Positions 3,349 to 62,479 are shown, numbered from the stretch's first letter. The stretch is DNA of 64,000 nt from Moniliella sp. 'wahieum' (GCA_003971905.1 RSEE01000097.1:124001-188000); one strand, 5' to 3'. Translations and numbers: made by a program. The notes: generated by a model not told the origin, from the letters alone.

Positions 3349-5832
<2,484 letters not shown>

Positions 5833-23340: not shown

Positions 23341-25333
23341 TTAATCATAATGTGCCAGACGGTAGACCAACACTTTACCCCTCGAGTTGCTCACTGCCAG
23401 CCCGCATCCGGTCGGATCAAAGTCGACGCTGGAGATATGGGCCAGGGGCGTGTTGGCAGTAGGCTAATTGGCAAAGACAGAGCCCGACTGGGCGTGGAGG
23501 ATGCGCAAAGCGTCCCGTTTGGGTCGGCTGGCCATCGCCATCATCTCACTTTGTGGGTGCCAGGCCAAGGCGGTGATGGCGGTGGCAAGGTTGTTGAGGG
23601 TGGTGCGGGGCTGGATGGTACGTACGGTAGCGAGTTGGCCAGCAGCCACGGCGGCCGCCTGCGCTTCAGCCGACAAGAAGCTTCCTCCTCCGTCCGACAA
23701 GCCTGCCAAGCACGCCATATCGTACAGCGACACAATCCCATTGCTCGCGCCTACCGCTATCGTCGTACCGTCCGGCGAGACCGAGAGACTATTGGGACGG
23801 AACAGGTCCGTATCCGTCGCTCGCACTGTCGATGTGAGCATCCTCGTATCCCACACGCCTACCTCGCCCGAACTCATGAGCGATAAGAGACGCGGCGCCG
23901 GACGTGACGTCCCATGCCATGCCGGCTACCGGACCAGGCGCCTGCAGCGTAGCGACCACCGACGCCGACCCGGCGCCCGACCGCCCCCAATCCAACAAAC
24001 TCATCTCGCCTTGTCGCCCGCGAATCGCAACCAAGGTATCTTTTCCGCCCCTGGCCTGCATGGACGGCGGCATGGGCCATGCGTAGGCAAGCGAGCGCGG
24101 CTCGTCGTCGGTGCGTGTACTTGCGTTGGACAAGCGCCAAGGGGTGGAGTGAACGATTTTTTGGCTGGCCAAGTCCCATGCATACAAGAACGGTCGGTCT
24201 CCCGATAAGAGCGCACTCGCATTCGTCCCGACCGTAGCCCATGCGACGGTGCGGATAGGCAAGTGGGGTACATGCGCTTGCATAACCAGTTGCCCGCCTG
24301 GGTCCCGCTGGGCGGCCGAGGCAGATGCCGAGGCCGAGCGCGCCAGCGAAGGAAGTGACCATAGCCGCACACGTCGGTCCCGCGAGCCCGTCGCAAGTAA
24401 TGGTGCCCCGCCCGTAGGAGCAGGGTAGAATTGCATGGCGTCAATCGCTGATCGTTGGGCCTCTTCCATGTTTGCCGTCACATCGCGCACACGGGTCACG
24501 ACGAGTTGGTGGGCAGGCAAGGGAGGTTGCTTGCCCCGCCCGCCCGTGCCCGGCCGAGGAGAGCAAAGGCCGGTCACTAGCCAAGAGGGCCGACAGGGAC
24601 GAGGATGCAGCTGCACCCGCACTGCCCATCTCGTCGTCGGTCGGGGGACGACGGAACATGCGCGCGGCCCATGGTGGCGCAGGCGTCGTACGCGCATGCA
24701 ACGCACGCAACCGTCTCGCGTACTCTTCCCCGTCCGCCGAGGTTTCCTCTGGGTACAGCCGCAGTTTCTTCAGACGTCCCGTCCCTGATGCGCCTCCATC
24801 TGCGGTGCGGGCTAATGGCCCGGCGAGCGGAACGGTCAGCCGCTCGTCGTCCGGATCCACCCAGGCTGGCCGACGGTCAATCTGCTCTTTCTCCTTGGCT
24901 TCCTCATCGTCGCTGGCAGGGTCAGCGTGCTCGCTTGCCTCGTATTCCGTCTCGGACTCGGGATCGGTCGTGCCCGATCGGTGGTACGCGGTCTGGCTGT
25001 CGTCATCATCATCGTCGTCGTCGTCATCGTCCTGATCGCTGCTGTCGGTGGCGCTGTGGCGGTCGGCGCCGCCGTCAAGGACAAAGAGCTGGTCGTCGGG
25101 CAGCGGGACGGGGGCCGCGTCGTGGGTGGCAACGGAGCGGGAGCGGGTGGTGAGGGAAGTGGAGCCAAAGAGGGACGCTTCGAGCGCCGCCTGGCTCGCC
25201 ACCTCCTCGGCCGTCAAGGGCTCCCGGGCGCGTTTGGGGGGGCAGGGTGGGCTGGATGGCGCTCTAACTGATTTTTTCCCACTATAATTAGAGTAGTCTG
25301 GGGGAGGAGGCTGCACCCTTTCCCCTCGCCCAT
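23341..25333 (-). CDS. UTP18: U3 snoRNA-associated WD40 protein Utp18 (5' end uncertain; frameshifts)
   Basis: LEASLFG, PAWVDPDDE, RLKKLR...EYARRLR...PPWA, LNNLATAITALAWHPQSEMMAMASR.KRDALRILH..SGSVFAN, C-terminal GKVLVYRL. Confidence 0.88.
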
Positions 25334-25597
25334 TTGCACCGAGGGCAGGGAGCACGTGCCTGGGGGTTGAACGTTCAAGTCTGGAAGCTTGATCTGAGAC
25401 GGGGCATGTGTGACAGGCGGCATCACATGTGACACATGCGGTCGCCAGCAAGCAGCGGCGCCCGGCTGGCTGCTCCACTCCAACACACACTGGGCCTGTG
25501 CGGGCGGGCGGGCGCGCGGGCGGGGCAAGGCAGCGGTGTGGGTGGTGGGCACGGGGGCAGCGCGCGGGCGGGCGGCGTGTGAGCCTTACCGCTGAGC

Positions 25598-28500
25598 ATG
25601 GGCGCGTCACACCACCCGTCTGACCATCCAGCAGCGCATCCATTCTCCTCCCCTCCTCCCGCCACGCCTGCCCGATGCCCGCGCCGCCCACGCAGGCCCC
25701 GCCGCCCACCGGCAGCAGCACACGGCAGCACCACCACCAGCAGCCCCGCCGCCAGCAGGCCGCCCACCCGCCTCGCACCCACCGCCACGCCCTTCGTGCC
25801 CGCCCCCGCCCGCCCGCCTTCCACTTCCCCCGCCGCCCCGCCCGCCGCCCCGCCCGCCGCACCCGCACCCGCGCCCCGTGCCGCCCGCCCCTCCTACACG
25901 CCCCTCAAGCTCGCCGGCCACAACTCCACCCCCAGCGTCGCCCTCGACCCCGCCGCCTTTGCCGCCTCCCTCATCGCCCGCGCCGCCCAGTCCACCTCGC
26001 CCCGCCCGGACACCCAGCCCTCGCCCCGCCTCTCGCCTCGGCCCTCGCCCCGCCCGTCGCCCCGCCGTCGCCCCGGCCCTCGCCCACATCACGCCCCAGC
26101 TCAGCGGCGTCGGCGCCCCCCCGGCCCCCGCCGGTCGCCCGTGCCCGCCACGGCGTCTCTGGCAGCACCACCCGCCCCGCCCGGCGCGGGCGGCCTGGTC
26201 CCCGTCCCAGCCAAACGCACCCCCCAATATACACCGTTCAGGCTCAGCGGACACAATTCCACCCCCAGTGTGGCCCTTGACCCACTCGCCTTTGCCGCCT
26301 CCTCGACTCTTCTCGTCCTTCCACCGCAGTCGAACCCGACCCTGCCATTGGCCCCATCTCCGAAGAAGCATCCCCTGGCGCGCCGCGCCAGCCATCTTTG
26401 CCCCCCAGCCCCATCCCTCCGCGGCTACGGAGGAACGTCTGGGCCATCGTCCCTCCCAAACCCTCGTCCCTGCTCCTACAGCCCACATCCCGCCCAAGAC
26501 CCAGCATGCCCGCACCCCCACTATGGCTCCGGGCGCAGTCCAAGTCCTCGTTCAAACCCAAACCAGGCTCGGAAACGGTACGTGGTCAGCCTGCCGCAAG
26601 ACAAGCTGCTCGGCTGCCCGCTCCCCGCCCCCGCTACGTTGGCACCCCATAGCTCCGGCGCCCCCAGTTCCAGTTCCAGTTCCGGCTCCGGCTCCGGTTC
26701 TAGCCCTGCTTCGAGTGAGAGTGAACAAGGGGGCCCTTCCTCATCGTCTGCGGACGCATCGTCCTCGGGATCCTCGGATCAATCAGCAGAAGACTTGCTG
26801 GAAGCGCACCGTGCGGCGGTGCGTGCTGCCTGGCGCCCTCGCGCCCCGTTGGACAAGGGCATTGACTTTGTTCCCGATCCGCTCTTGCTGCCCTCCCCCA
26901 CTTCGGCCGACACGGCACCTATTGCAGCGCCCATCGGACTGGTCGAGGCCGCGGCGGATGCAGTAGCAGCGGCCGAGGCAGCGCGAGCCCTGCCGCCCCA
27001 GCACCCCATGCCGCCGAAGTAACGGCCGAGGCAGAGGCTGCTGCCGAAGCCGTGGCGGCGGAAGAAGCGCACGAGGCTGCGCTGGAAGCGGGCTTGGCTC
27101 AGGGCCGTTCGTCGTTGGCCGTGTACGAGGCGCTGGTCTACCCGAGACGATCGATATTTCCTGCCGGGCCAAACAGCGTGGAACGAGTACCGTGCCGAGC
27201 GCTCGGCAGCGTTGGCGGCACAAGCTCAGTTTGCTGCGCAGGCGGCGCAGATGGCCCACATGGCGCAGCTGGGTGTCTCGCCCAATGGCATGCCGCCGCT
27301 GCCTTCGGGAGAGAATGCATTGTCTCCTATCGGGCATGCCCAGCCCTCTTCCTGCTGCGCCGCTCGCTGCCCCTCCTCCGGGCTCGGAAGGCGGCCTGGC
27401 CTCCCCCTCGTGTTCGAAGGCCCCATGAACCGTCCGCCTCCGATCGACGACGAGCCTGACCAGACTGACCAGGTGAGCATGCCTCTTCTAACTGCTACGT
27501 CGGGAACTGACCCTGTCCATCAGATGCGGCCCTCGTCGGCGCATAGCTCCAGCTTGGTGCCCAAATGGCTCGCGAGCGGCTGGTCTCGCCCAGGTCCGTC
27601 TCCCACCCCGTCCCAGGAACGCGACGCGGAGCAGCCCACGAGTGGGCCAGCAGTCCAATTGAGCGTCTCTCCTGGTGGTACACCCAACCCAACCGCCGCC
27701 CCAGGAACGCTCACTTTCCTCCAACGTCTGTCAGGTGCAGCTAAGCGGGCGAGCCTAAGCTTGACTCATTATGGCGATGCTTCCTCGGCCGGCGACCGGG
27801 ACGGCCTTCGTTCCCGCAGCCGCTCGCCCAACCCGACCGAAGAGGCATCGGAGCATAAGGGCACAACGGGCTCCATGCTGAACGCGCTCGGCTTCCGCCG
27901 CTCCCATCCGACCTCGCCCCAACCCGTCAACGAAAAGGGCGCCCGTCCGGCATGGCAAAGTCTCGGTGCCGGATTGGGTATGACATTCCCCCATTCGCTC
28001 GTCTTCAGGCTTATCGACGCAAGCGGATGCCGAGGCGGATCGATCATTGTCCAAGAACGACGAGATGGAGGAGGTGGACATGCGCACCAACCCATCCGAA
28101 GATGGTGACACGTCTTCCCTCGAAGAAGGCGAGCGTGGCAAGCTCGACTTGGACTTCCCACGGACGTGGAAACGCCTGCCATGACAGCGGTGCCTCAACC
28201 GCCCTTGGCAAGCCTCGGCCACGGACGGCCGACAACATCTCACGCCGGTCGCTCGGACCGTACCTCGTCTGCATCGAAATATGCCCCGTCGCATGATCGT
28301 GTAACCAGTGGCCTTCAACTCAACGCTTCTGCGCCCTCGTTCACCCCAGGCAGCCGGGCCCCCAGTGCCTCCTTCACCTTTGTCGCCCCGCCCACAGCAC
28401 CCAAAATGGCCTCGCCCCCACCACGCGCCCCGGTCGTTGCGGACGATGGCGAGCAAGGCAGGGAAAAACGTTTCCGGCCCACCATGCCCCCTGGCGCTGA

Positions 28501-31500
28501 CCTCCGTCCCACTGGCCCCTCGGGCAACTCGGCTCGCGCCAACAGATCCCATCCTGCCATCCCACCCTCCTTGTTTGCCCTCCCACCCGCGACACCACGC
28601 AAGCTAGAGATCCGAGCGCCGGCGCCCGATCCTCAGCCGCAGCCGACTGCTCTTGGCTCAGCCACCGCGCCTGCCACCCCTGGGCCCGAGCCCAAAGCGG
28701 GTCAAACGAGTGCCCCTACTCCTGCTACTCCTGTTGCTCCTTCTGTCCCATCCGGCCTTGCCCGACTTTTGGCTGGGCGCGATGCCGGAGCAGAAAAGGA
28801 AGTGGCACACCCACCTCTCGATGCTGACGAGACGGCCGTGGCGTCTGATGAAGAAGATGGGTCGGAACAGGCACACCGAAGGCGCCGGAGTCAAGCGCCT
28901 TCGCATTCAAGCGAGCGGGCGGCCGCAGCAGCCAAACTGTCGCAGGTGGTGCGCACGGCGACCCAACGGCACGCCGCCACCTTATCTGCCACCTCTATTG
29001 GTTCCCGCACGGGGCTGCCCGCAACACCGCGGCGAGCTCGGCTGGCATCGGACCTGCCTTCGTCCATTGGTGCTCCCGATCCAATCGCTGCCGCTCTGGC
29101 TGCCGCACGGGCCGAAGCAGCCGAGGCAGAAGACATTGTCGACCAAATCGTCACCCGGCTCGATGCGAGCCTGGACAGCTGGGGGCAGCGCCTCCTTGCC
29201 CGGGTCGAAGCTGAGCGGTTGGCTTCGGCTTCGGCTTCGCTTCGCTCGCGCGTGGCCGGGCAACCAGTCCTCCACGTGCGCTACCCAGTCGGGCCAACGC
29301 ATTGGTCACCCCCACGCGCAGCACCTTGCGTGGCACGCCCCTTTCGCTCCCGGCCGCCCCGCGGCCTGGTGAGCCCAACCCGTTCCCCTCGCCCTCCCAT
29401 CTGGCTTGTTCCCACCCCCCCGCCTCGCTCTCGCTCTCTTCCCCTCGACCACCCCGCCCGAGGTGCTTTCGCGCGTCGAGCAGGGCGTGCGCACCACCTT
29501 CTCCAACTACCTCAAGCGCCTTCCTGGTCTGGGTGCCCCCGCGTCCGGTTCGGACGGCAACCACGATGCGCGTGCAGCGCTCCCTGCTCGCCCTCCTCAC
29601 GCGCCCGCCAGTCCCGACTCGCTCACCGACGCCCAGGGTCCCCGACTTTGATTATGTCGAGGAGACGCTGCGTGCCAAGGTGGTCGAGTTGGAAACGGAG
29701 GTGCTGGCCATTGTCAAACAAGGTATCACCCCGCTGTGCAGCAGCAGCAGCAGCAGCAGCACGTGCCAACCGACCCGTCGTCTGCTCCCGCTCCTGCTTC
29801 CGCTCCCGGTCCTGCTCCCGCACAGGTCACGGTGGCCATGTCGGCGGAGGAGATAGGTGCGTTGGCCGATACGCTGGACGAGCGGATGAGCAGCTCGTTC
29901 GAGGCGGCCCAGGCTGAACTGGTGCGCTTGCTGGGCCAGCCGTCGGAACCGGTGGTGCGTATCTTGCGCGAGACCGAGGCGGCGATCGAGGCGCATGCAG
30001 CTTCGTTCATGGCGACACAGCAGTCGGTCGAAACGCTGCTGCATACCTTGCCGGCCAAGTTTGATTTGGCGGCAGATACGCTGGCTGGGCTGGGCAAGGT
30101 GTAGCCGCGCAGGTACAAGCGAGTGTGGTCAGTGCGCTGCAGCCGCAGCTGGAGAACCTGCGTGCCGAGTCGGAGCAGATGGATGGTGAGGTAGTTGCAG
30201 CGCGGGTGCTTGCGGCATTGGTACCCCTGCTTGAAAGCAGACAAGACGAGATGCCCGATCGGATGGCCGAAGCGATCGCGGGCCAATTACGAGCCGAATT
30301 GCGCACCCAAATTCACCTCCAAATGCAAGCTCACCTCCACGACCAAGCGCACGAGGCCGAGGCAACGCGTACCGCCGCCTTGCGCCGCTTGGCCTTACCG
30401 CCTGCCTCACTCGGTGCGCCCAGCTCAATCAGCACCACCTTGTCCTCGCCCCCGCCGAGGCGCGATCGCGACCGCGACTCGGACAGTGGAGAAGCCGCTT
30501 CGACCACGGCGGCTACCACGGTGACAGATACCGGGTCGGTCGGTGCCGGTGCAGCGCATGAGGAGGACACCGACCGACCGCTCGCCACTCCTACTGACCA
30601 GACCGAAGGGCAGGACAAGGACGGATCGGGTCTGACGGCGGAAACGGTGGCAGAGCTGGCCACGGCGTTGGCGAATGAGCTACGGGCGTCGGGAGGGCTG
30701 AGTTTGGACCCGCTGCTGGAACGACTGGACCCGCTTGTGAGCACGCAAGAAAAGACATGGCAGTTGGGCAATGACTTGCTCGCCCACCAAGCCGAGTTGG
30801 CCGGCACGTTGCGTGCGCTTCCGGCGTCGTTGGGGGCCAAGACGGATGTGCTCCTGACTGCGACGAGGGAGACGCACCAGACCCAGCAGCTCATCCTGGA
30901 TCGTCTGATGCACGTGGCCGAGGCAGCGCAAGCAGCGCAAGTACGTATCTCGGAAGTGGAAGAAACTGCACGGAGTCGGACAGAGGCCATGGCCGAAGCG
31001 CAAAAGCGTCACGGTCAGATCGAGGTGGAGCTCAAAGCGGCCCAAGCCGAACTCGCTGCGACCAACAAGTACGTTGCTACGCTCAAGGAGGAAGTGGAGG
31101 ATTTGGAAAGTCGATTGGAATCGGCCCAGACGACAGCAACGACGGCAACGGAGCAACTACGGGATGCGCATTCGCGCTTGCGCGATGCGGTCGAAGCACG
31201 CCATGCTGCTGAGCGGGGCAACGATGATGTGCGTCGACGCATGGCCCAGGCTGAGGCGGAGGTGGCGCGTGCCCAGTCAGCCAGCTCGTTGGCGAGTACG
31301 CGTGCGGACGAGGCGCGTGCGGCGCTGGATCGGGAACGGGAAGATCGGGCGGTGGAACGGACGCGGATGCAGGCCGAGGTGAGCGACTGGCGTACGCGCG
31401 CAGCTCGTGCCACCGAAGAAGCCGAGCAAGCTCACACCCTCTCGACTCGTTGGTCAACGATGCCCAGACGACCCGTACCAACGCTGCTTCCGACGTGGCT

Positions 31501-35945: not shown

Positions 35946-37089
35946 GGGGAGGGAGATGGGGAAGAAGGGAAATAGAGGTGGTGGTGGTCGGGCGTCGAGC
36001 AAATGCAAGGCCCTAGAGCAGAAGAATCCAGAGACGTCTCGTTGTGGCGCACAAAAACCTTGCCCACAGCAGGATTTAATATCGACGCTGGCGCTGGGCC
36101 GAGCAAAAGCCTACATAGCACCCCCTGTAGGACGCCCCCCGTCCTCTGCTCTGCTGCCCTCCCCGACCGGTCAACTCGATCAACCTGATCAACGCGCGCA
36201 TCTCAGTCATCACATCATCCGTCGCCGTCTTATCCACCACCGATCCTCTCGGTTTCGCAAAACCTTCAGTTGGTGTGATGTGGGGGTGATAGCTTGCCTA
36301 GGCTGGTGCTACGGCTCAGGGGCACTAGACCAGTTCATATGCCAGAGAATCGACGTGCTGCGCGTGCGCCCGCCTTTCCTGTCCTCCTTTCTGCAGGGCG
36401 TCTTTGTTGTCTCTCCACATCACCGCGCCCCTCTTCGCTTCACTCGTAGCCGCGTCCCCCCTCTCTGTAACTGATAGACTGGCCACCTCCCCTGTAGACT
36501 GCTCGTCGGAGAGTGCCATATTCTACGGCTCAACAACTTCTGCCCAAGAAGGGATAGATACACCAAAGCAAAAAACCCGAAAACATTTGATTGTTGCCAG
36601 GTTGCATCACCATCGCCACTGTCGGCACTACCGCCCCGCCTCCACTCCCATGATTATGCTACTACGCTAAGTCCGCATCCGCACAACGCACACGCCCCTG
36701 GCGTGATTTTAACCGTGGGATAAATACAGCAATGTGCTACACAGAAGAGCCAAAGAGTGTGAGTTGTGGAGATGCCCGAGAAGTCCTTCTCTCTTATTCC
36801 TTTTCTAATCTACTACTGATACCCACTTTGTGGAGGTACAGGGTCATAACCTTCGAGATCTCTCAATAAAGTTGCTTTTACATCCAACTTTCACACTGAC
36901 TGAGCGCCATCGCGGCCCTTTGCCAACCAAAAAGAGAAGCAGGAGGTTCTTCCCCAACGTCTCAGCAAACAAGAATGCCACAGGGATCGAGCCACCCTCG
37001 CGCGTCGAATCAAGCTCAGGGAGTCAGACACGTTTATCTTCCACATACGAAAAGAGACCTGGATGAAAATCCGATGGGAGGTGTCATCT

Positions 37090-37188
37090 GTTCCATTAGC
37101 TCAGTTGGCTAGAGCGTCCGACTGTTACACAGACGGCCTTTGCCCCTTTGGCATCGGGAGGTCGTTGGTTCGAGCCCAACATGGAACG
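37090..37188 (+). tRNA. tRNA-Asn(GTT) with 25-nt intron (37128-37152)
   Basis: Acceptor GTTCCAT/ATGGAAC, A-box TAGCTCAGTTGG, anticodon arm TCCGA-CTGTTA^A-TCGGG, B-box GGTTCGAGCCC, downstream T-run. Confidence 0.95.
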
Positions 37189-37195
37189 AATTTTT

Positions 37196-37440
37196 TGTTG
37201 CTTTTGCCGATGAGACCTAGTTTGATGGTCCTCGAAGGTGATGCAATCCACTGATGGTGGCGGTATGGTAACCAGCAATGCCCATAGAGGAACATCAAGC
37301 AGCGAGTCGCCATCAGGGGCTAGGCTGCAGGACAAAAGGAGAGAAAAACAGGATATAGGGAAAAAAACAGCGGAACTCTTCCTAGGCCTGAGGAGGAATT
37401 GACGGGACATTGGCCAAAGCACGAGCCACTCAGCTCAACA
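37196..37440 (-). repeat. 3' LTR (245 bp)
   Basis: Aligns with 44387-44629 (about 90% in alignable cores by hand count, plus indels). TGTTG...CAACA termini. Confidence 0.85.
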
Positions 37441-37554
37441 CCCCCCGGGCCAAGGGACCAAAGCAGACCCGTAGGCCACAGGATGTTAAGAAAGAAACGA
37501 AAAGTGAAGAAAGAGGTGCCAAATCGAATTCTGTTGAGAGGTGTTGAAAAGGAG

Positions 37555-38460
37555 AGTTTGGGAAACCAACAGGTTTGGTGACCCAATCAGAGAGATGATC
37601 CACGCCAGGGGCATATGATGAACGACAAGTGTTAAAAACGAAGACAGGGTCTAAAGAGAGAAGGAGAGGGGGACGAAGGTGATGGATCTATTCCAAGGAG
37701 GAGCCCGTTAGGGGCAGAACATAGTAGGGGAGAGCCGGATAGAACGCGCGATTTGTGAGGCGTGATCAGCTGCATGCATGATGGCGCTGAAGACGACAGG
37801 AGAGGGGGGGGCGACTTGTGGGGCATGACCCACACACCGGCTACTGAGAGAGAGGAGGGAGCTGTGTCGGTATCAGACTCACTTGATATATTATGCTCCC
37901 CTCTTCTCGATCCGTGTGATTCACTCGCATGTTCTCTTCTGCTCCGAGGCATATATATACCTCGCCCTCTGTCCACACTCGATGAATGTGATCCTCATCC
38001 TTTCCCCCATTCATCCGCCTCCTAGGTGCCCGTTGAGGAGGCGCAGAGATGGAGAGGTGTTGGGACAGGCACTTGTGAAAAAGAGGGGATATGGGCCGGA
38101 TATTATAACCCTGGTTCCTTAAATGGGTTGGCGATACCAAGCAGCATACGCAAGATGAACGGGTCGGTTTAGGCATAGCGTTTCCTTGTCCAAGCCTTAT
38201 TAAGCTGTCAATGATATGGATGAATATACGGCAGAGAGTGTATTAGTGCCGCCACCCCCACGAAGTCGATGGCAACTAGCTTTGCAACTTTCGAGGAAGG
38301 AATAGTCCAGCTTGGGTGAGTGCTCTCCGACGGCAGCAATCTAACCCCATATAAATCCGCGTTTGTGTGTCGGCTGGCCGGCAAGCATCTCCAAGTAATA
38401 AAATCGGTTGGTTGGCCTGCACTTTTTACATCAGCTGCCCGTGACACGTTCCCAGCCACC
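37555..38460 (-). pseudogene. Eroded copia reverse transcriptase-RNase H remnant
   Basis: DLYGVR (~SLYGLK), IRPISPLFHKCLSQHLS (~TRPDIxxAVxxLSQ), GGKDED..TEGEVYICLG (~WGGD..STSGYVF), HGSRR..ISSESD (~WxSxxQ..SSTEAE), YAPGVDHLSDWVTKP (~YxPTxDxxADxxTKP). Confidence 0.6.
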
Positions 38461-38535
38461 CGCAGCCAGAGTATCGGTGATATTATTTACCCTCTCCAGC
38501 GTGGAAGGGTTCCAGCGTGGAACGGTAGCGACGGT

Positions 38536-38667
38536 GGAACGGTGGCTAAGGTGGCGAAGGGGACCGGTGGCTAAGGTGGCGATGGTGGGCGGGGGAACGG
38601 TGGCTAAGGTGGCGACGGGGGAACGGTGGCTAAGGTGGCGAAGGGGGAACGGTGGCTACGGTGGCGA
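38536..38667. repeat. G-rich minisatellite, 5 copies of core CGGTGGCTAAGGTGGCGA (~26-bp period)
   Basis: Cores at 38540, 38565, 38598, 38624, 38650. Confidence 0.9.
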
Positions 38668-38832
38668 CGCAGCAGACCGGGCCGTAGGCCCGGTGGTCTC
38701 CTCGTATAGATATAGACAAAAGGCATATAGATAACTGTGTGCGAGTCAGCACCAGCTCGGCTCAAAAGACGCAACCGCTCCTGTGACTGCAACACCGTTT
38801 GATCCCTGTAACCCCCGCCCCCGGTTCCTCCG

Positions 38833-38839
38833 TATATAA
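38833..38839 (+). promoter_or_regulatory. TATA-like box (TATATAA) upstream of the F-box gene
   Basis: About 60 bp before ATG 38901, followed by a CT-rich leader. Confidence 0.45.
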
Positions 38840-38900
38840 CCCTACTCCTATCATCCTCTCCTCAGCTTCTTGTGCTCACACCACCACCACCACATCGCCA

Positions 38901-40888
38901 ATGGAAGCGCACGCCTCCCATACCCGTTCCCCTGCCGCCCGCCGTCCGGCTCGTCTGGCCCAATTCCGCCCCCGACACTTCTTGCAGCCAACAGCCCCCA
39001 ACCCTGCCACCAGCCGCTTTACCGCCCCCTTCCTGCCCTGGGAATGGGCCCGTCTGCCGCATGAAGTTCTGCTGCAGATCATGGAAACGGCTGCCGCCAT
39101 CAGCAGCGATCTGTTGTTCCCTTGCCTCCTCGTGTGCCGGACGTGGAGTGCGGCCGCAGTCATCCCGCTCTGGCATTCTCCCTCGTTTCCCCATCCGGCT
39201 ACCTTGGACCGCTTCACGTCCATCTTGGCCCAGGCCCAGACCCATTCCACTTTTTACCCATACTCCATCTTGGTTCGCAACCTCGACCTTTCCGTCCTGC
39301 CCGATGACTTCCCGCCGCTCCGAACCGTGCACGTGGATAGCTTTAAATTGTGCACACGCATGCAAACGCTGGTACTCAGCGACCGCGGGTGCGACTTGTT
39401 GACGGATGTCCAAGTCGCGGCTCTGATCCGAGCCTACCCTCGCCTCTGCCATGTGGGTCTCTTATGCATGAACAATGTCGGCCCATCGACGATGGAGGCC
39501 TTGACGTTGGCCCGTGACTTGCAACATCTTGAGCTGAAGGACTGTACGTTCGTTACGAGCACCATGGTGGAGCAAGTGCTACTCAAGCGTCCCCTACTGA
39601 AAGAGGTCCACCTGGGCGGCACCCACAACATAATAGGCGACCGGGGGATTGGTGCCTTGGCCCGTCTCTGTCTTCACCTCGAGCACGTCGAGCTAGACAG
39701 CCTTATCTACATTACCGACCAGGCAGTGCGAGCGCTGTGGACGCACGCAGAATTCGTACGCACGCTGCGCATGTGGAATTGCCCTACATTGTCCTCATAT
39801 GCGTTCCCCAACCGCGGCGACGTCCCCCTTCCATCAACAGGCGCAGCATGGCTCCTGCCACCCACCCGCGATTCACAGGGTTCGGGTCGGCCCTTTCTCC
39901 AAGATAGCAGCTTACCGCCTCCGCACGACCCATCCCGGTCGGACGACGACCGAGCCTCCCCCGAGACAGTCGACCTACATCCTTCGTCAGCTCTTCGCCG
40001 CACCAAATTGTACCAACCGCTCCTGATGGGCAAGTGCTTGACCACGGTTTCCTTGATGGGCTGTAGCCAACTCACCGACCCAGCGATTCAGGGACTCGTT
40101 GCCGCAGCACCCATTTGCAAGACGTAACGTTGGGCATGTGTCCGCAGTTGGGCGATGGAGCGCTGGACGCCTTGGGCCAGTTGGGCACAGGCTTGCAGTT
40201 TGTCCTGTTGGCGTATTTGAGCCACATTACGGATGCGGGAGTGGTGCGGCTGACGCAACAGTGCACGGGCCTGAAGAGGGTAACTTTGACAGAATGTCCG
40301 CTGAGTGATCGGTCGGTGTTGAACCTGATGGTTCGCCTCCGCCAGCTGCGCGGGATTGCGCTGCACCGCATGCGGGGGTTGAGCACGATGAGTGTGTATG
40401 CGCTGGCGCTTTGTCAGTCACTGCAAGCGGTGCTTCTAGGCGGGTGGCAGCCGGCGTTCACTCCGTCGCCTATCTTTCATCTCCTGATTACGCTCCCGCA
40501 CTTGCATAGCCTTAAGCTCAAAGTCAATCCTGTGAATCAAAAGAACGATTCGCAGCAATCTTTCCAGCCCAATCCAGCCGACTCGCTTGGTCCGGCGTGG
40601 TGGGACCCAGCCAGCTCGCTCGGTCCCGCGTGGTGGGACCCAGCCGGTTCGCTTGGTCCTGAGTGGTGGGACCCATCCATCTCGAGCTACGTTCGCCGTC
40701 AGGGCATAGTTGCGCTTAAAGAGTACATGATCAATTGTCTTTACCGCCCTGGCACTGTCCAGGCTGTCCTGTCGCTCCCGCTATACGACAGGGATGACTT
40801 TCTGGCCCAAGCCCTGCCCCCTCTCCGCCCCCCTATCATTACCAAACATAGAAGCACGTTCACCCTTCCCGACCCTATAAACTTTTAG
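38901..40888 (+). CDS. F-box/leucine-rich-repeat protein, divergent Grr1-like SCF adaptor (one frameshift ~40115; may extend to 41106 via a second)
   Basis: F-box ARLPHEVLLQIM...CLLVCRTW...LWHSP, then YPYSILVRNLDL and Cys-containing LRRs (LCTRMQTLVL..CDLLTD, LELKDCTFVT, SLMGCSQLTD, LAYLSHITDAGVVRLTQQC). No introns seen. Confidence 0.88.
40574..40672 (+). repeat. 3 x 33-bp coding tandem repeat (PAxSLGPxWWD)
   Basis: PADSLGPAWWD/PASSLGPAWWD/PAGSLGPEWWD. Confidence 0.92.
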
Positions 40889-40947
40889 TGCCGCCAGCGG
40901 ACTCGCGCCAATGGCGGCAACAACACCATCACCACCAAAAACATGAA

Positions 40948-41013
40948 CAACCACAACCACAACCACAACCACAACCACAACCACAACCACAACCACAACC
41001 ACAACAACAACAA
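40948..41013. repeat. (CAACCA)9(CAA)4 microsatellite; poly-PQ if translated
   Basis: Read directly. Confidence 0.9.
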
Positions 41014-41249
41014 CACGAATCCTCACCCCCCCTTCTTCCTACCTTGCACCAACGGCTCAAGGCGCGACTGTCGCAACGGAACCGGCGCCGATCAATGAGA
41101 CGCTGAACCGTGTTATGGGGCGCTCCGGTCATCTCCGGACACCGAGCCCCGCATTTCGTAGAAGACCTCTCATCGAAGCACACTCCAGCCCCACGACACT
41201 TGTGAATAAGAGTCAGCACGGGCAACTTGCCGCGGATACTTTTCGCGGA

Positions 41250-41920
41250 AAGCCGGGAAAGGACGGCCGGACTTATTAAACGGTACGGCGCTTCGTATCT
41301 GTGGCGCCCCGTCTTGGTAGAACCTCACATCTACTGCGCCCAACGGATCGCAGAATGGGCAGAACGGGCCGCCCTTTACCTCTTACTACTGTAGATTCCC
41401 TTTCTTCTGTTGATGCCTGTTCTGAGTTACGGTATATAAGCAGCCCTGTCTGTGAGGCTTGCTGGCGGTGATCCTCACCGCCCAACCCACGTCTTCCCTC
41501 CGACTTCCCTCTTCACTCTTCACCCTTACGCTTACGAATTTACGACTTATGTGGACCACTCTGCAAGCCGCGGTTACTATCAGTAGCGCTTGCTCTTCTT
41601 TATAAGTAAGCAAATTCGTGCAAAAATGCGGGGTCGTGAATCGCATCTTGTGCCTGTTCCGTAGACCACTCGGGGTGTACATCTTGAAGATGCAACAGGA
41701 ATATGAGCTCACTCTTAGGTAGCTTCGGCAGGAAGAATGGGACCTGCGGGCTCCTCGTGGAGGGTAGCTTCAGCAGAGAGAATGACGTCGGCAGGCATGC
41801 TTTCGGCGCGTGGGTTACGCTTTTCTTGGAAAGGGGTGGAAAGGCAATATCGGCTCAGGACGGAGGCCAGGCATTCAGCCATGCGGGGTAGGGATGCTAG
41901 AGTGCGACTTGGGAGCACTC
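41250..41920 (-). pseudogene. Eroded copia integrase remnant
   Basis: LLTYKEEQAL (~LKxKxE), VRVKSEEG / GGED (~RSDxGGEY), QTGLLI...STEERES (~GIxH...QQNGxAER), AVPFNKS (~AxYxxNR). Weak individually but in the right order and position. Confidence 0.4.
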
Positions 41921-42139
41921 GCGATATGGATCAGCTGCAAAGCAGCCTTCAGACAAGGCGTGAAGGCAAAGTGGTGAGCCACAAGTCTTCAAGCAACGTC
42001 TGAAGGGAAGGAGAAAGGAGAGAGAGAAGGGAGATGGAGCGAGCAGGGCGTGCGCGGCCTGCGAGCGGAACGCTTCGCTCGGCTAGGCGAGCGTCACGAT
42101 CCATTGAGGGCCGCGCAGGAGAACCAGTAGCAGCACCCT

Positions 42140-44264
42140 CTAACAAGGGATAGGTGGGAAAAGAATATAAGCAGGGGAGGGCCGATACAGGGTGGATATA
42201 TAGAAATAGGCAGTGCCAATGCTATTGACTCGCACTACCCGTCCATCTGCAAGGACTATAGGACGGAGCACGACTAGGACGTAGTGAGGTAAATGCGTTC
42301 TTATCCTTGAAGACAGACGGGCGCGCGCGCGAATCATGTTGCGCAGGGAGGGCGGCTGGCGGAGGACTCCGCGCACCCTATTGCTGATGAGGGGAGTAGC
42401 TGTGGATGCAGCAAAACTAATGCCCGCGCTAGGTGCCCGTCCCTGAGAGTTGGTCCTTGTTGGTTGGTGGAAAACGAGCGGCACGGCCCCACGTGTGCTC
42501 ATATGGTATGAGGCAGCGGTAGAAGGAACAGAGAGACCGCAAGGATTGGTAGCCCACTGTGCGGTACCGTGCGAAGGGGGGTAACCAAGGATGCGTCCAG
42601 CACTATGCCTCCACCCTCGCGCAAGACATTGCCAGTTATGGAAGCAGTATGGCCGGGAAGGGGTGGCACCTCGGAACGAGCGTCCACTTCTGAAAGACCC
42701 GCCACGGGAACTAGTGTTGGTGCGATGATCGTGTCCGCGAGCAGAAGAGGAAGAAAACGACGCCACAGGACGAACTGCAGATGAGTGAGTTGTCAAAAGC
42801 ATCAAGAGTTCCTCGTATGTTTTATCGGCATATGGAATCACCATGCCGTTCTTCTGTATCGCGTTAATGACCGCTATACGGAGGATGGGTTGGCAGAGGA
42901 GAGTCCAGCCACAAGTTGGTCTTGTGTACCAACAAACGATGCTGCTGAACAAATTGGGCCCCCATCCGTGAAGCAAAGGAAAGGCCAAGAAGGTCTATCA
43001 ACGTGTCGATTTTCTCCGAGGGGAGATGTGACCGTAGCGTTCGCGAAGGAGAGCAAACGGGACGCTGCACGAGAATCCACTTCATTCTCATGAAATGAAT
43101 CCTGAATAGTGCGATGTAGTCGGACGTAAAGGGGATCAAAAAGCTTACGGTCCAGACCGGGCTTATAACCAGCGCCGGTAGGCCCATGCTCCACAACCTC
43201 CCGTGCCCCCAGGATTGCCCGATCCATAGCCGCAAGGGCGTGGTTGGCCCACGGCCAAAATGGTTGTCCGGCCTTGAACTTGTCGTCTTTGTCCACCGTG
43301 GTAGTCAGGGTTTTCAAAGCAGATAACGTATCTGGATCCTTGCCTTCGTCACGGAGTTGCCGGAACAAAACCATTTGTGCTTGGTGCCCAAGGTCCGAAC
43401 CATAGCTGCTGACGGCATATTCGTGGATTCGGTTCCAAGGCATTCCACCGTCAATGAAGACGGTGCGCAAGTAGTCGATTGCTTCATCCAAAGTGACGGT
43501 AGAGGGAGAAACAGGGATTGCATCTTTCAGTGCAGCCGCAGAATGCGTAGTGTCGGAAGGCAGTTGCTGTATAACCTCCATAGCAGCTGGAAGGCCCACG
43601 TCAGCACCCCAACGTTTCTCGGCTACATCCAGGAGGCAGTCCGCAGATACGCCGGAACGGAAAAGCTTAGTTAAAGTTGACAAGATTGTATCATCAATCG
43701 GAGGAGTAAGCGGCGTTATCGTTGTTGCCACAGGAGTATCACTAATGGATTCGTCGTGAGACACGGGTGACGCGACCGGCCGTGGAGTTGGGACGGGATC
43801 TGGAAGGTCAGATGTTTCGGAGGAGTGTATGTGGGAAGAGGAGGGGGGGAAATAGGAAGAAGAGGAGAACCAAGATGACGTGCAAAAGCCCAGCAAAACA
43901 TGACGAAAGGTGGTACGCAATTCGTCGAAGTGGCGCGCGACAACAGCAGACGTTTGGGAAGACCGATCGCTGGGAATCCGCTTAATAGGATCACCGATCA
44001 TTTTCTCGATCTTGGGGTTGAGGGATGAGATATGCGGAGATGGACTTGAAAATCAGGCGTGAGGTTTTTGGCTACCAGCAGAGGGGTCTGGTCCTGAAGA
44101 ACATGGTAAAGGGTTTGGTATTGGTCCAGTTGTTCTTCAGCCATCTGAGACGCGCGTTCGAAGGTGATGCCTTCTGTAGGAAAAGGAGATGGAAGATGTT
44201 CGTCTGCCCAGTCCGGGTTCGAATCCAAGGGGGAAGGGGTATTAGGGAGTGGAGTGGCGCTCAT
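42140..44264 (-). CDS. Gag-like polyprotein with protease remnant (split over 4 overlapping ORFs)
   Basis: Starts ~120 bp inside the 5' LTR. FWPWANHALAAM, RGG-rich tract followed by PYCFHNWQC..H (degenerate knuckle), RNMI...RPIVLADGRVVRVNSIGTAYF (copia protease/beta-barrel pattern lacking DSG). Confidence 0.6.
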
Positions 44265-44386
44265 TGTTGACGAAATACGCCAAAGGGATTGATTGGGAAT
44301 GGGAATGGGTATGAGTATGGCAAATGGATGGAATTGACGAATGCTGTTGGGTGATCACCGTTGCTCACTGGATGAGCGAAGAGAGT

Positions 44387-44629
44387 TGTTGTAACTCTGA
44401 TGAGACCTGCGAGCTGGAGTCCTGATGGTCCTCGAGGGTGATGCAATCGCACTGGTGGTGGTGGTGTGGCAACCAGCAATGTGTACAGAGGAACATCAAG
44501 CAGCGAGTCGCCATCAGGGGCTAAGCTGCAGGACAAGGAGAAAAACAGGAGAGGGAAAACAGCGAAACTCCTAGGCCTGAGGAGGAACTGAAGGGACACT
44601 GGCTAAAGCACGAGCCACCCAGCTCAACA
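44387..44629 (-). repeat. 5' LTR (243 bp)
   Basis: Direct repeat of 37196-37440. TGTTG...CAACA termini. Confidence 0.85.
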
Positions 44630-45217
44630 TTTGCTTTTGCTGTTTCTGAGTTTAAAAACCCGGGTAACATTGGCCGCCCTCGACTGAGTATTGATTCCAC
44701 CTGAGGCCTGATTAACGATTGCACTCGTAGAGTAAGCACCCCATCCCCTATACTGGGAAGAAGCTGTATGATCGGATCATCCTCCTGTACATGCAGTACA
44801 GGTGATATGCATGGCGGTATCACTCAATACATTTGTGGATGCCAACGCAGTGGTGGAAGGAGCCAAGGTCCATTGAAAAAGGAGTGAGGGTTGTGTTTAC
44901 AGTCCACATTGTAATACTGGAAGAAGAAACGAGGGTATGCTTGGGCAAGAGAAGAGAAAAAAGGAGTGGAAAAGGAGAGGAGATTGTCCAAAGATCAGCA
45001 GATCAGCCAGCGATCTCGATCAGTATCAGTCTGGGGCCACAACAGAGAAACCTGTTTCGGTTCTGGAGCAACAAGGGTCCCAAAAACAAAGCAGGACAAG
45101 AGATACGATAGCAAAAAAAAACGAAAAAAAAAACAGGTGCCACAGCCCAGAGGGTTCTGGGTAAATATCAAATCCCCACCCTGGCAAGTGCGACAGAGAA
45201 GAAGCGAGGCAGCGCAA

Positions 45218-50510: not shown

Positions 50511-54102
<3,592 letters not shown>

Positions 54103-56948: not shown

Positions 56949-57476
56949 GCCTTCCAGTCGCGGTCGAGTACATGAACGTTGAACCCTGATCCTCCGAGCG
57001 TACTGATACGGAGTACTGCGTGTGCTGCGCTGGGAACGAAGTTGCCATAGCGCGAGACGCGGAGGATGACGAGACCCAGTTCGAGACACCAAAGTGCTGA
57101 TAAGGCCTAAAGGTTGGATCGACGCGGGAGACTAGAACGGTTGTGTGTGGTGGTGTGCTCCAGGGAAAAATAAGAACGACTCGACCCAGGCTGAGAGGAG
57201 CATACAACGGGCTAGCTAGCTACCGGGTTGGCTCGTAAATCTCAGTCCCAGGCAACTAACTGCCACGATGGGTGAGTGACTAGCCCCCCAAGCCAGTTGC
57301 TAAATTCCAAACGCCTCTTCCACACATGATGATTGTGCGTGCTTGGGAGATGGTTGTGTGAGGGGATGGTATCAGTGGTTGACGAGTACCAGGGTTTGAG
57401 TACCGCCTCGACGGAAAAGAGTAGGAAAGCAGAACAGGGGAAATTGGGGAATTTATGCCCGGGAAGAAAAAAAAAA

Positions 57477-57573
57477 CGTTCCATGTTGGGCTCGAACCAA
57501 CGACCTCCCGATGCCAAAGGGGCATAGGCCGTGTGTAACAGTCGGACGCTCTAGCCAACTGAGCTAATGGAAC
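57477..57573 (-). tRNA. tRNA-Asn(GTT) with 23-nt intron
   Basis: Exons identical to the 37090 copy; intron differs by a 2-nt indel and 1 substitution; T10 terminator. Confidence 0.95.
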
Positions 57574-57859
57574 AGGTGATTAGGTAGTTAGCCTATTAGG
57601 AAAAAGGCGGCTGACAAGCAAGCATTCATGCTGGTAGACATAGGTGGTTTATATTGAAGGCTGGCAATCAACGAGGGGACAACCACCTTCGTCTCCCCCC
57701 GTCTGCAGCATCCCTCGGGTGGCTTTGGTTGATGCGATTGCCCTCCACGATGCCCACTGCGCCCCCGCTGCCTCGGATGCCCACCACCGCCCTCCAGCTC
57801 GGCTCTCGCCTGTATGCTGCCGCTTAAACTCCGGCCGCCTCGCGGCCTTGGACCCTGGC

Positions 57860-60450: not shown

Positions 60451-61625
60451 TTACTCGAAGACAGCCTTGAGCTTGCGCGGGCCGAGGAAAGCGTCGGCCT
60501 CCTCGCGGGTCTGGAACTGACCGTGACCGTGCTTGGACGAGGTGTCGATCCACTTGAGAGCGACGTTCTCGAGCGCAGCACGCGAGGTGTGGTGGGCCAT
60601 CGACTTACGGAGAGTCACCACGCGCTTCTTGGTGCCGGGGATAGAGCCCTTGAGTAGGACAAAGTCCGAGTTGACGATACCGTAGTGGGGGAAACCACCC
60701 ATGGGCGTGATGGCCTTCTTGGTAGCGTCAAACTCGGTCGAGCCCGAACCTTCCTCCGAGCCAGTCGCGATGCGGTAAATCTTCTTGTTCAGCTCGGTAC
60801 GGTGGTGGTACCCGTCCTGACCGGCACGCGCAACGGTGAAGCGCACGTTGGCCGGGTGCCAGGCACCAATGCAGGCAACCTTACGCAGACCACGGGGGTC
60901 TTGCGAGGAAGCTTCTTGACGCCCCAACGGGCCACCACACCCTCGTTACCGTGACCCTTGGTGATCGAGATAACGTCAACAATCTCGTTCTCGGCAAAGA
61001 CCGACTTGAGGTCGACCGTCTTCTCAAAGTGCTCCTTGGCAAAGTCGACCTTGTCGGAGATAGAGCCACCGTTGACCTGGATCTCCATCAGGTGCGCCTT
61101 CTTCTGCTTCAGGCCAGTCTTGGAGAGCTGGGTGTGGGCAAGCACACGGACGACCGTGCAGTACTTGCGGATGCGCTCCAGCTCCTTGCTGATCGAAGCA
61201 CCGCCATCCTCAGAGTACTTCTTGGCGTAGGTAGTGAACGCCTTGCGCTTGGAGCGGTACCAGTTCTTGTAGAAGCGACGCTTGACTTCCTCGGACAGGT
61301 GCTCGGCCCAGACGGTGGTCAGGGCACGGAGACCCTTGGGCGTCTCAATGTAACCAACGGCACCCACAACCACCAGAGGAGGCGCCTCGACGACGGTAGC
61401 CGACTCGACAATCTCCTTCTTGTGCATCTTGGACCCGGGGCGCTCGAGCTCACGCACAATGTGGGTCATGCCGGCCTTGTAGCCCAGGAAGGCGGTCAGG
61501 TGGACGGGCTTCTTAGGGTCGTCCTTGGGGAACGCACGCACGCGGCCGCGCGGGTGGGCGGCACGCTTGCGCGGCAGGAAGGCAGTGCTGCCGTGACGGG
61601 GGTGCTCGTACTTGCAGTGGGACAT
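60451..61625 (-). CDS. RPL3: 60S ribosomal protein L3 (uL3); one apparent frameshift ~60893
   Basis: [77 protein letters not shown]. Confidence 0.98.
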
Positions 61626-62479
61626 GGCGGTGGAGGGCGGCGTCGTCGAGTCGTCAGCCCGTCGTTTTCCGTAGTCAGCCGGCGGCTGGAAGCGGCGGCA
61701 GCAAAAGAAAACGCAGACGCAAAATGATAGGGTTGTCGCATTGCACCGTATGACCCCCTGCGGGGTTCTTTTTATTGCGGAGGGCCACCCGGGCGTCTAG
61801 TGCCAGTGCCGATATGCAGCTACAATCGCAGGTCAAACTTTCAGTGGGTTGCATCATCCACTTTAACCCCCGGCCGCGGCAGACCAATGGGCTCAGACGA
61901 GGGCCAACACGTCCCAACGCAACGCAGCACTTGTTAGTTCTCAGTAGCACCCCCGTTTGGGGCAGGGCAGCACTGCATGGTGCCAAGAACGATAGCAAGA
62001 TGAGATCCTAGCCATGTCCTCCATCCTCACCCACCCCGACGCCGGAGAGGGGTCGGGGTTTTGAGGAACGCCCTTACCCGGTGGGCTGTGACAGATGCGG
62101 ATGCGCAGCGCCACCCACTTCCCCCGACAGCACCCGCCTTGTTGTTCTCACGCCGACGGATGCGTGCTTGGAGCTCACCCACCTCCCTCCAATTGGGGTT
62201 ACTCTATTGCTACCGTTAATGCATTGCTCTCATTCTCCACCCATCCTAATCCAAGCTCAATCGGTATGGGCATATGCGCCGCTCCATGCCCCAGTCGAGC
62301 GAATTTGGCGCGGCACTGGAAATATGGAAAACCTACACTACATTTCCGCGTGGCTCGGCCGAAACATGTGGGAATAAGGGGATCGATCCCTTTATCCAGA
62401 ATGGCGGGATCGAATTGGATTTCGGGACCGAGTCCAAATCCACCCCCTTGCCTACGAAACCCACTCGACCCAGGCAGAT

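Follow-up and report, generated by a model that had tools for sequence, protein, structure and literature searches.

Capture and transduction of a gene by a retroelement is exemplified by Bs1 of maize. Among bdelloid LTR elements, autonomous elements have acquired ORF3s that lie on the sense strand (PMC5408684). In Drosophila, telomeric non-LTR elements carry captured fragments of 140-235 bp that are thought to act via small RNAs, one of them from the F-box gene CG12520 (PMC13534243). In plants, the Ty3/gypsy elements Retand, Grande and RIRE2 contain antisense additional ORFs (aORFs) between pol and the 3′ LTR which mostly have a TRP28 domain and are common to most copies and across species (PMC11963269). 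Here, we describe a fungal locus, located in a window of 64 kb (the whole stretch of DNA analysed), whose most probable reading (about 0.55) is an old single insertion of a pol-less LTR element that encloses an antisense host-type F-box/LRR gene, the block with this gene having entered the element lineage once.

The insertion is bounded by two direct repeats 7.19 kb apart, at 37208-37440 (233 bp, plus strand CGATGAG...CTCAACA) and 44398-44629 (232 bp, plus strand TGATGAG...CTCAACA), which delimit an element of 7,422 bp (37208-44629) with an interior of 6,957 bp. Both repeats have the same orientation and they are the only two copies of this LTR within the window. Their ends follow the pattern (C/T)GATGAG...CTCAACA, with CG..CA in the left copy and TG..CA in the right one, and their alignment contains 202 identical positions out of 221 (91.4%), 16 transitions, 3 transversions and 8 gap events (K2P 0.093), in line with the ~90% likeness of the LTR cores noticed in an earlier, sequence-only reading of the locus. 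That reading had delimited the repeats as two ~245-bp TGTTG..CAACA units. Although the repeats themselves hold up, the edges had to be moved: homology begins at 37208 and 44398 rather than at the TGTTG of 37196 and 44387, the stretch of 7-8 nt that separates TGTTG from GATGAG differs between copies, and the earlier edges give 3/5 flank matches. With the edges placed at the limits of homology, a perfect 5-bp duplication, TTTGC (5/5), can be read from the sequence on both sides, at 37203-37207 and 44630-44634. In addition, the 10-mer TTGCTTTTGC is common to both outer flanks, as would be expected if a (TTTTGC)n target had been split. Because of the perfect duplication, the shared 10-mer and the (C/T)G..CA ends, the repeats and the target site duplication (TSD) are one LTR-type insertion, and the possibility that the two LTRs belong to separate insertions, which the earlier reading had named as one that would overturn it, went against the evidence.

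Six C residues (37441-37446), which read as G6 on the minus strand, adjoin the inner edge of the left repeat and correspond to the polypurine tract (PPT) that had been proposed there, although the run is short and best called PPT-like. This run, together with a long gag-like ORF on the same strand, places the element on the minus strand, so that the left repeat is its 3′ LTR, with the G6 run directly upstream, and the right repeat its 5′ LTR. The locus thus shows the traits of an LTR retrotransposon, namely TG..CA-type repeats, a TSD of the 4-6 bp class and a PPT beside the 3′ LTR. As for the primer-binding site (PBS), none was found in either orientation: no TGG follows either LTR, and at best 5 nt are complementary to tRNA-Asn, the sole tRNA species in the window and the only one compared.

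The element inserted into a T-rich (TTTTGC)n tract, 14 nt downstream of a gene for tRNA-Asn(GTT). This gene (37089-37189, plus strand, found with aragorn -i) contains a 25-nt intron and is followed by a T6 Pol III terminator (37191-37196). There is no tRNA gene beside the right LTR, and the second tRNA-Asn gene of the window has no LTR beside it. tRNA genes are integration hot spots for some LTR elements, and Ty1 and Ty3 of yeast and DGLT-A of Dictyostelium, which target them, integrate upstream of tRNA genes. The present insertion resembles these elements in lying less than 20 nt from a Pol III-transcribed tRNA gene and differs from them in being downstream, just past the terminator, and in being a single case.

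Which genes does this element contain? The sequence-only reading had recognised IN, RT and RNase H remnants on the minus strand and had suggested an HMMER check for rve, RVT_2, RNase_HI_RT_Ty1 and Retrotran_gag. None of these families was found. Pfam searches of 140 ORFs (sets of 70 minus-strand ORFs, 68 plus-strand ORFs, and two F-box pieces with 12 long minus-strand ORFs), in which weak pol remnants could go unseen if frameshifts had cut them into fragments below 35 aa, returned no gag, protease, rve, RVT or RNase H family. The same was true when the three full minus-strand frames, with X at stops, were searched at E values up to 10, and a six-frame regular-expression scan found no YxDD, D(S/T)G(A/S), HHCC or CCHC motif. 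The remnants are thus absent from all three scans, and the Ty1/copia domain order PR-IN-RT-RNase H (rve, RVT_2, RNase_HI_RT_Ty1) was not observed. Once the gag-like ORF and the F-box block are set aside, only ~2.0 kb of interior is left, into which a copia pol does not fit. The ORF, motif and Pfam scans of this remainder gave one stretch with neither a long ORF nor a family match (37447-38069, GC ~0.52) and another with stops in all minus-strand frames and no family match (41213-42139).

Because the LTRs are 91.4% identical, a pol coding sequence present at integration would still be ~95% intact. On this ground we infer that the element was already pol-less when it integrated, and in that case its enzymes must have come from elsewhere. 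The earlier proposal that the last move took place in trans, without a pol of its own, therefore holds as far as LTRs ~9% apart and an undetectable pol can carry it, the mobilisation in trans being the probable explanation. With LTRs, TSD and PPT present, enzymatic domains absent and a size of several kb, the element is LARD-like.

The long ORF in the orientation of the element begins 134 nt inward of the right LTR and is a gag/PR-like ORF of ~2.1 kb (42140-44264, minus strand), composed of three overlapping frame pieces, 43998-44354 (Met at 44264), 42874-44052 (392 aa) and 42140-42994 (284 aa), with no in-frame stops and a GC3 of 0.49-0.53. Its assignment comes from the ESM Atlas, where the clusters nearest to the 284-aa tail piece are copia gag/Pol_BBD at 0.82-0.85, values that fall below the 0.9 bar of the tool and are rated by it as a lead only. 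The ten clusters listed for this piece are mostly copia gag, Pol_BBD or zf-CCHC, and 8 of its 10 best matches with a family belong to a common family or clan. The 392-aa piece gave no usable Atlas match, Pfam (in which a copia-type Gag would match Retrotran_gag_2/UBN2), PDB, BLAST and sequence database searches recovered no homologue of the ORF, the motif scan found neither a CCHC nor a D(S/T)G motif in it, and its AF2 model (pLDDT 38.7) is unusable. Hence, of the gag and PR genes claimed for the minus strand, the open reading frame stands and the Gag/PR identity is kept as a lead only; the ORF beside the 5′ LTR probably encodes a Gag of copia type that has diverged strongly, together with a protease that is dead. 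The label "Copia" for the whole element comes from this language-model similarity (0.82-0.85) and from motifs, and it is not supported.

On the opposite strand, antisense to both the gag-like ORF and the orientation defined by the PPT, lies a gene of ~662 codons (38901-40888, plus strand; ATG at 38901, stop at 40886-40888) which, judged by its sequence, is a real F-box/LRR gene of the FBXL type. The F-box (39045-39188) matches Pfam F-box-like PF12937 with an E value of 1.1e-7 (32 bits, cutoff 24.3 bits). A single frame switch occurs at a C-run (40110-40112), and FBXL2 is matched in the PDB on both sides of it (3.3e-9 before, 3.1e-12 after), the LRR match picking up at residue 2 after the switch. 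FBXL17 (~1e-7 and 2e-8) and COI1 are further PDB matches, so that C-terminal leucine-rich repeats of the FBXL type are present. The protein also has a proline-rich insert, a C-terminal tail of no known family and an 11-residue unit (..SLGPxWWD) repeated three times, encoded by an in-frame 33-bp ×3 repeat at 40574-40684. All the parts of the plus-strand cassette described earlier are there: besides the ORF, a GGTGGC-rich minisatellite upstream of it (38507-38672), a TATATAA 62 nt upstream of the ATG (38833-38839, a sequence match only) and a (CAACCA)n microsatellite 3′ of the stop codon (about 40918-41016). Yeast Grr1 is the fungal archetype of FBXL-type proteins, and the description of the gene as Grr1-like holds for its architecture only. 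Two word-index searches, in which distant relatives can be missed, gave no match with E≤0.001: there was none among 8000 scored candidates in one, and a single LRR match at 7.8e-3 among 3102 candidates in the other. Like human FBXL2 and FBXL17, plant COI1/TIR1 and yeast Grr1, the protein has an N-terminal F-box followed by cysteine-containing LRRs of ~26 residues; unlike them, it carries the proline-rich insert, the 11-residue repeat and the familyless tail, and the word-index searches found no orthologue of it.

The claim that the F-box ORF matches nearby housekeeping genes in intactness holds in this error-rich assembly: in the same window, aconitase contains at least 4 intron-less frame switches, RPL3 contains 1 and the F-box ORF 1. 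Since aconitase and RPL3 carry frameshifts of the same kind, that of the F-box ORF is probably an assembly error. With the LTRs as neutral yardstick, which comprises 221 positions only and in which some 1-nt gaps may be assembly errors, neutral substitution at K/2 would leave the F-box ORF free of new stops with a chance of 0.20 × 0.27, and the gag-like ORF with one of 0.66 × 0.28 × 0.34. Moreover, these two ORFs of ~2 kb contain 1 and 2 frame switches respectively, versus 8 gap events in ~230 bp of LTR. In composition, the F-box block is host-like (GC3 of 0.68-0.70 in its ORF and 0.59-0.80 among 13 further ORFs in the window, against 0.49-0.53 in the gag-like ORF), and this difference in GC3 suggests that the F-box and gag-like ORFs do not have a long shared history in one element. 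The 3.1-kb block is enclosed by a 16-nt direct repeat, CACTTGTGAA[A/T]AAGAG, whose plus-strand copies (38070-38085 and 41197-41212) match at 15 of 16 positions. Of 300 Markov shuffles, 3 produced a pair on either side of the ORF. The repeat was spotted post hoc, and the 7-kb interior as a whole should hold ~0.28 such pairs. The repeat would fit the insertion of a discrete block and gives no date for it.

In the reading that we favour, a pol-less LTR element would have been placed on the minus strand by integrase, with a 5-bp duplication, in the (TTTTGC)n tract, with IN, RT and RNase H presumably supplied in trans at integration. The element would have kept one open ORF of ~2.1 kb beside its 5′ LTR. 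The 3.1-kb block, apparently a complete host-type FBXL-class gene in antisense with its own upstream region, most likely joined the element lineage once, as DNA, with the 16-nt direct repeat as its boundaries. Its entry after integration comes close to an even bet, and its presence on board at integration is a possibility that we would hold somewhat more tentatively. Today the gene may serve the fungus as one of its SCF substrate adaptors, ordinary in function and specific to the lineage. With one copy to go by, travel of the gene with the element is a possibility only.

The sequence-only reading went further and proposed that the element had already captured the F-box/LRR gene when it last retrotransposed, in trans, as part of a gene-carrying family that spreads the adaptor. 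A single insertion with a TSD and no pol at the time of insertion suit this model, and the two ORFs have decayed less than the LTRs, as expected of a unit under selection. In addition, a gene placed antisense between the gag-like ORF and the 3′ LTR, beside tandem repeats, reproduces the layout of the plant aORFs (PMC11963269). However, no second copy was found in the 64-kb window, in metagenome contigs or in viral contigs, which are weak negatives, and the GC3 of the F-box gene is host-like, unlike that of the gag-like ORF. We regard this model as unlikely.

Could pol instead have been lost in place? An autonomous copia element that inserted here and lost pol by deletions and replacement with the F-box block, without any move in trans, would require the fewest steps, and deletions are needed anyway to leave ~2.0 kb of interior. 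But at 91% LTR identity its gag-PR should match the Pfam families copia gag, zf-CCHC and Pol_BBD, and the gag-like ORF, though open, matches none of them and contains neither a CCHC nor a D(S/T)G motif; nor is there any rve, RVT or RNase H signal in the 0.93-kb and 0.62-kb leftovers, which makes this course of events improbable. Least credible of all is that a solo LTR near the tRNA gene and a 3′-truncated element, inserted independently, bracket a resident F-box gene with a TSD that matches by chance: the host-like composition of the gene and its own upstream region, the attraction of Ty1/Ty3-like elements to tRNA genes and the lack of a PBS tying the interior to the LTRs would agree with it, but the duplication is 5/5 at canonical TG..CA edges with TTGCTTTTGC on both outer flanks, the LTRs are co-oriented, the G6 immediately adjoins the left LTR on its inner side and no tRNA gene accompanies the right one.

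How does this old, pol-less insertion enclosing an F-box/LRR gene compare with known systems? With LARD-type non-autonomous LTR elements it shares TG..CA ends, a 5-bp TSD, a PPT-like run, the absence of IN, RT and RNase H and a size of several kb; it departs from them in its open gag-like ORF of ~2.1 kb, in the complete antisense host-type gene, in having no recognised PBS and in being known from one copy. The captures of bdelloids and Drosophila likewise place host-derived coding sequence within a retroelement, and one Drosophila case also concerns an F-box gene; in the present locus the gene is whole, comes with its upstream region and lies in antisense, and any mobility with the element is putative. 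Finally, in comparison with Retand, Grande and RIRE2, the present element is a single copy from a fungus that encodes an F-box/LRR protein and lacks pol, and it has in common with them an antisense ORF before the 3′ LTR and short tandem-repeat arrays in the same region (PMC11963269).

We read the stretch at 37208-44629, in minus orientation, as a non-autonomous LTR element that inserted once, long ago, next to a tRNA-Asn gene; it has kept a gag-like ORF and encloses a host-type F-box/LRR gene that entered as a 3.1-kb block, and we give this reading slightly better than even odds (about 0.55). The observation made in the sequence-only reading is confirmed in part, and its interpretation has partial support. 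Within the window, the repeats that define the element occur twice, as direct copies 7.19 kb apart. The sequence-only reading had recognised this pair, but it set the edges at TGTTG (37196 and 44387); the 7-8 nt that separate TGTTG from GATGAG differ between the copies, and homology begins at GATGAG. The left copy, which is the 3′ LTR, covers 37208-37440 and runs from CGATGAG to CTCAACA (CG..CA ends), and the right copy, the 5′ LTR, covers 44398-44629 and runs from TGATGAG to CTCAACA (TG..CA ends). In a global alignment they are identical at 202 of 221 aligned positions (91.4%) and differ by 16 transitions, 3 transversions and 8 gap events, with a K2P distance of 0.093. With the LTRs about 9% apart, divergence since integration would come to about 5% for each copy and likewise for the interior. 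Simple repeats of the GGGAATGGG/TATGAGTATGG type (44277-44344) lie just inside the right LTR; a similar tract 6 kb off (50615-50758) is 78-83% identical over 41-65 nt, a resemblance that is probably one of simple sequence.

The gag-like ORF consists of three minus-strand pieces at 43998-44354 (with a Met at 44264), 42874-44052 (392 aa) and 42140-42994 (284 aa), which overlap head to tail, each in a different frame, and look like one ORF of about 2.1 kb interrupted by two indels. Its start lies 134 nt inward of the right repeat. A phmmer search of 1.84 billion representatives returned one match to the 392-aa piece (1.4e-4, in 8 short stretches), which we have taken as low-complexity, and the C-terminal half of this piece (residues 215-392) gave no usable match in the ESM Atlas. 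For the 284-aa piece, there was no relative among 2766 candidates and no PDB sequence match at E≤10, and the AF2 model, with a pLDDT of 38.7, was unusable. Its nearest ESM Atlas clusters are of the copia-type gag/Pol_BBD/zf-CCHC kind, with 8 of the 10 best family-bearing matches in agreement, at scores of 0.82-0.85, where the tool itself rates anything below 0.9 as a lead. Compared by eye with copia consensus motifs, this piece bears a resemblance to a protease stretch lacking the catalytic aspartate, followed by a beta-barrel-like stretch. Viral contigs contained no match to the gag-like ORF.

On the plus strand, the F-box/LRR ORF extends from the ATG at 38901 to the TAG at 40886-40888. Its F-box-like domain scores 32 bits against a Pfam cutoff of 24.3 (E 1.1e-7), and in a PDB search its repeats match the LRR domains of FBXL2 (3.3e-9), FBXL17 and COI1. 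The frame shifts by one base at a run of C residues (40110-40112), and the piece downstream takes up the FBXL2 match again at residue 2 (3.1e-12); the two pieces are therefore a single gene carrying a 1-nt indel. An intron was considered as the cause of the frame switch and rejected: the candidate GT..AG pairs (24, 51 and 57 nt) do not restore the frame, the 57-nt candidate would also delete part of an LRR, and the LRR match runs straight across the break. Frame changes without introns also occur in the window in the genes for aconitase (3800-5700, at least four) and RPL3 (60790-61800, one), which makes breaks of this kind a feature of the assembly. Indel errors amount to about one per 0.5-1 kb of coding sequence, and lone frameshifts here are no sign of pseudogenisation. 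The earlier proposal that the cargo ORF is as intact as the housekeeping genes is borne out, with one frame switch against at least four in aconitase and one in RPL3. The label 'Grr1-like' fits the architecture of the protein but finds no homologue at E≤0.001 in two word-index searches, which did return an LRR protein at 7.8e-3. In metagenome contigs, the protein had a single match, to a generic LRR sequence with 29% identity. Within the ORF, three in-frame copies of a 33-bp unit (40574-40684, 87% identity) specify an 11-residue ..SLGPxWWD.. motif that belongs to no known family. About 230 nt upstream of the start codon lies a minisatellite (38507-38672) that is rich in GGTGGC and has spacings that vary irregularly (9, 17, 25 and 33 nt).

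How have both ORFs stayed open? Under random substitutions at K/2, the chance of remaining stop-free is 0.20 x 0.27 for the F-box ORF and 0.66 x 0.28 x 0.34 for the gag-like ORF. The LTRs carry 8 gap events in about 230 bp, and the two ORFs, each of about 2 kb, carry one (F-box) and two (gag-like) frame switches, a number not above that seen in essential genes. Either purifying selection has acted on both ORFs since the element integrated, or neutral decay is overstated by the small LTR sample; for the F-box block, a third possibility is that it is younger than the insertion. GC3 is 0.68-0.70 in the F-box ORF and 0.49-0.53 in the gag-like ORF, the latter as in the non-coding interior, and 0.59-0.80 in 13 other ORFs measured in the window. 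From this contrast we infer that the F-box gene has a host-gene past and no long shared history with the gag-like ORF. The 3.1-kb block lies between the two copies of a 16-nt direct repeat (38070-38085 and 41197-41212, 15 of 16 positions identical) and comprises the minisatellite, a TATA-like box and the ORF, with about 300 nt beyond its 3′ end. Of 300 Markov shuffles, 3 produced a repeat pair flanking the ORF, and pairs at any position numbered 0.28 per shuffle. Because this repeat was noticed post hoc, we count it merely as a hint that the F-box gene might have arrived as a discrete DNA block, and it carries no indication of when; it may be an insertion junction or microhomology. The block edges show no poly(A) tail, TIR or helitron-like end. 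A second pair of 16-nt repeats (37846/42018) was dismissed as GA-rich low complexity. That the block was already on board at integration seems to us somewhat less than an even bet.

The sequence-only reading had also placed integrase, reverse transcriptase and RNase H remnants in the interior. We scanned against Pfam all stop-to-stop ORFs of at least 35 aa that overlap the element (70 on the minus and 68 on the plus strand), together with the two F-box pieces and the long minus-strand ORFs, and F-box-like was the sole family above the cutoff; no gag, PR or pol family was found. When the three full minus-strand interior frames were read with stops as X, no retroelement family appeared at E up to 10, the sole match being HEAT_Maestro_2 (E 0.38), and none of the six frames contained a YxDD, D(S/T)G(A/S), HHCC, CCHC or ADxxTK motif in a regular-expression scan. 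Moreover, the interior left outside the long minus-strand ORF and the F-box block (37447-38069 and 41213-42139, plus the copies of the 16-nt repeat) amounts to about 2.0 kb, around half of what a copia pol needs. None of these approaches supports the proposed remnants, and motif-level readings of this kind can be illusory.

The most economical view is that the element was non-autonomous by the time it integrated and would have been mobilised in trans, because a change of about 5% would leave an intact pol obvious to Pfam unless it had been removed, and because the gag-like ORF, though open, fits none of the copia models and lacks both knuckle and catalytic motifs. Movement in trans had been proposed from a barely recognisable pol; that premise fails, but the inference itself holds, given LTRs about 9% apart and no detectable pol. 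Alternatively, an autonomous element could have integrated and lost its pol in place afterwards, which requires that the part kept, gag-PR, be recognisable, and it is not. We therefore prefer an element lacking pol from the time of its integration.

Directly outside both LTR ends lies a 5-bp duplication, TTTGC (37203-37207 and 44630-44634), and the 10-mer TTGCTTTTGC is common to both outer flanks, so that a single integrase-type insertion of 7,422 bp is indicated rather than two separate insertions. One (TTTTGC)n-like target would have been split by a 5-bp staggered cut. The element lies 14 nt beyond the end of a plus-strand tRNA-Asn(GTT) gene with a 25-nt intron (37089-37189; ARAGORN, introns allowed), which is followed by a T6 terminator (37191-37196). 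A second tRNA-Asn(GTT) gene, with a 23-nt intron, lies on the minus strand at 57476-57574, and the two are 93% identical over 103 bp, intron included; with default settings ARAGORN missed the first and labelled the second tRNA-Cys(ACA). The second locus has no adjoining LTR and was rejected as a paralogous empty site, as its downstream flank fails to align with the right flank of the element. The other genes of the window are ordinary eukaryotic ones, including those for aconitase, a MutS homologue, a protein kinase, EMC2 and RPL3. The region from 25000 to 30000 is very GC-rich (0.65-0.72) and has long ORFs that overlap on both strands; those of them that were scanned matched no Pfam family.

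Does the element disperse the gene? A 35-mer from the LTR core was matched in neither metagenome nor viral contigs (0 in each), both weak negatives, and we consider it unlikely that a dispersing family of such LTR-F-box copies exists. Some plant and animal viruses use their own F-box proteins to send host factors to the proteasome, and LTR elements without pol that are mobilised in trans are well known. The F-box/LRR gene could be true cargo, kept by selection for the element's own benefit as a retrotransposon-encoded SCF adaptor that, expressed antisense from its own promoter, would mark a host restriction or silencing factor for degradation by the proteasome while the pol-less element spreads in trans beside tRNA genes; we regard this as very improbable. 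If the gene did travel with the element, fungi would provide here a rare example of an LTR retroelement carrying a whole host gene complete with its promoter, and a ubiquitin-ligase adaptor would be placed to serve the element against its host. What the present evidence offers, and what is useful for genome annotation, is a clear example of an LTR element that lies beside a tRNA gene, lacks pol, retains a gag-like ORF and has a lineage-specific gene embedded in it; to call it a new kind of element is not yet warranted. The literature that we searched contained no fungal LTR element with a complete F-box/LRR gene, and earlier reports may exist. Outside fungi, several systems offer comparison. 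The plant elements Retand, Grande and RIRE2 regularly have additional ORFs in antisense, placed between pol and the 3′ LTR and accompanied by tandem-repeat arrays, and transduction-like additional ORFs are usually present in one or few copies (PMC11963269). Bdelloid LTR elements have acquired diverse ORF3s (PMC5408684), and Drosophila telomeric non-LTR elements have captured host-gene fragments of 140-235 bp, one of them from an F-box gene (PMC13534243).
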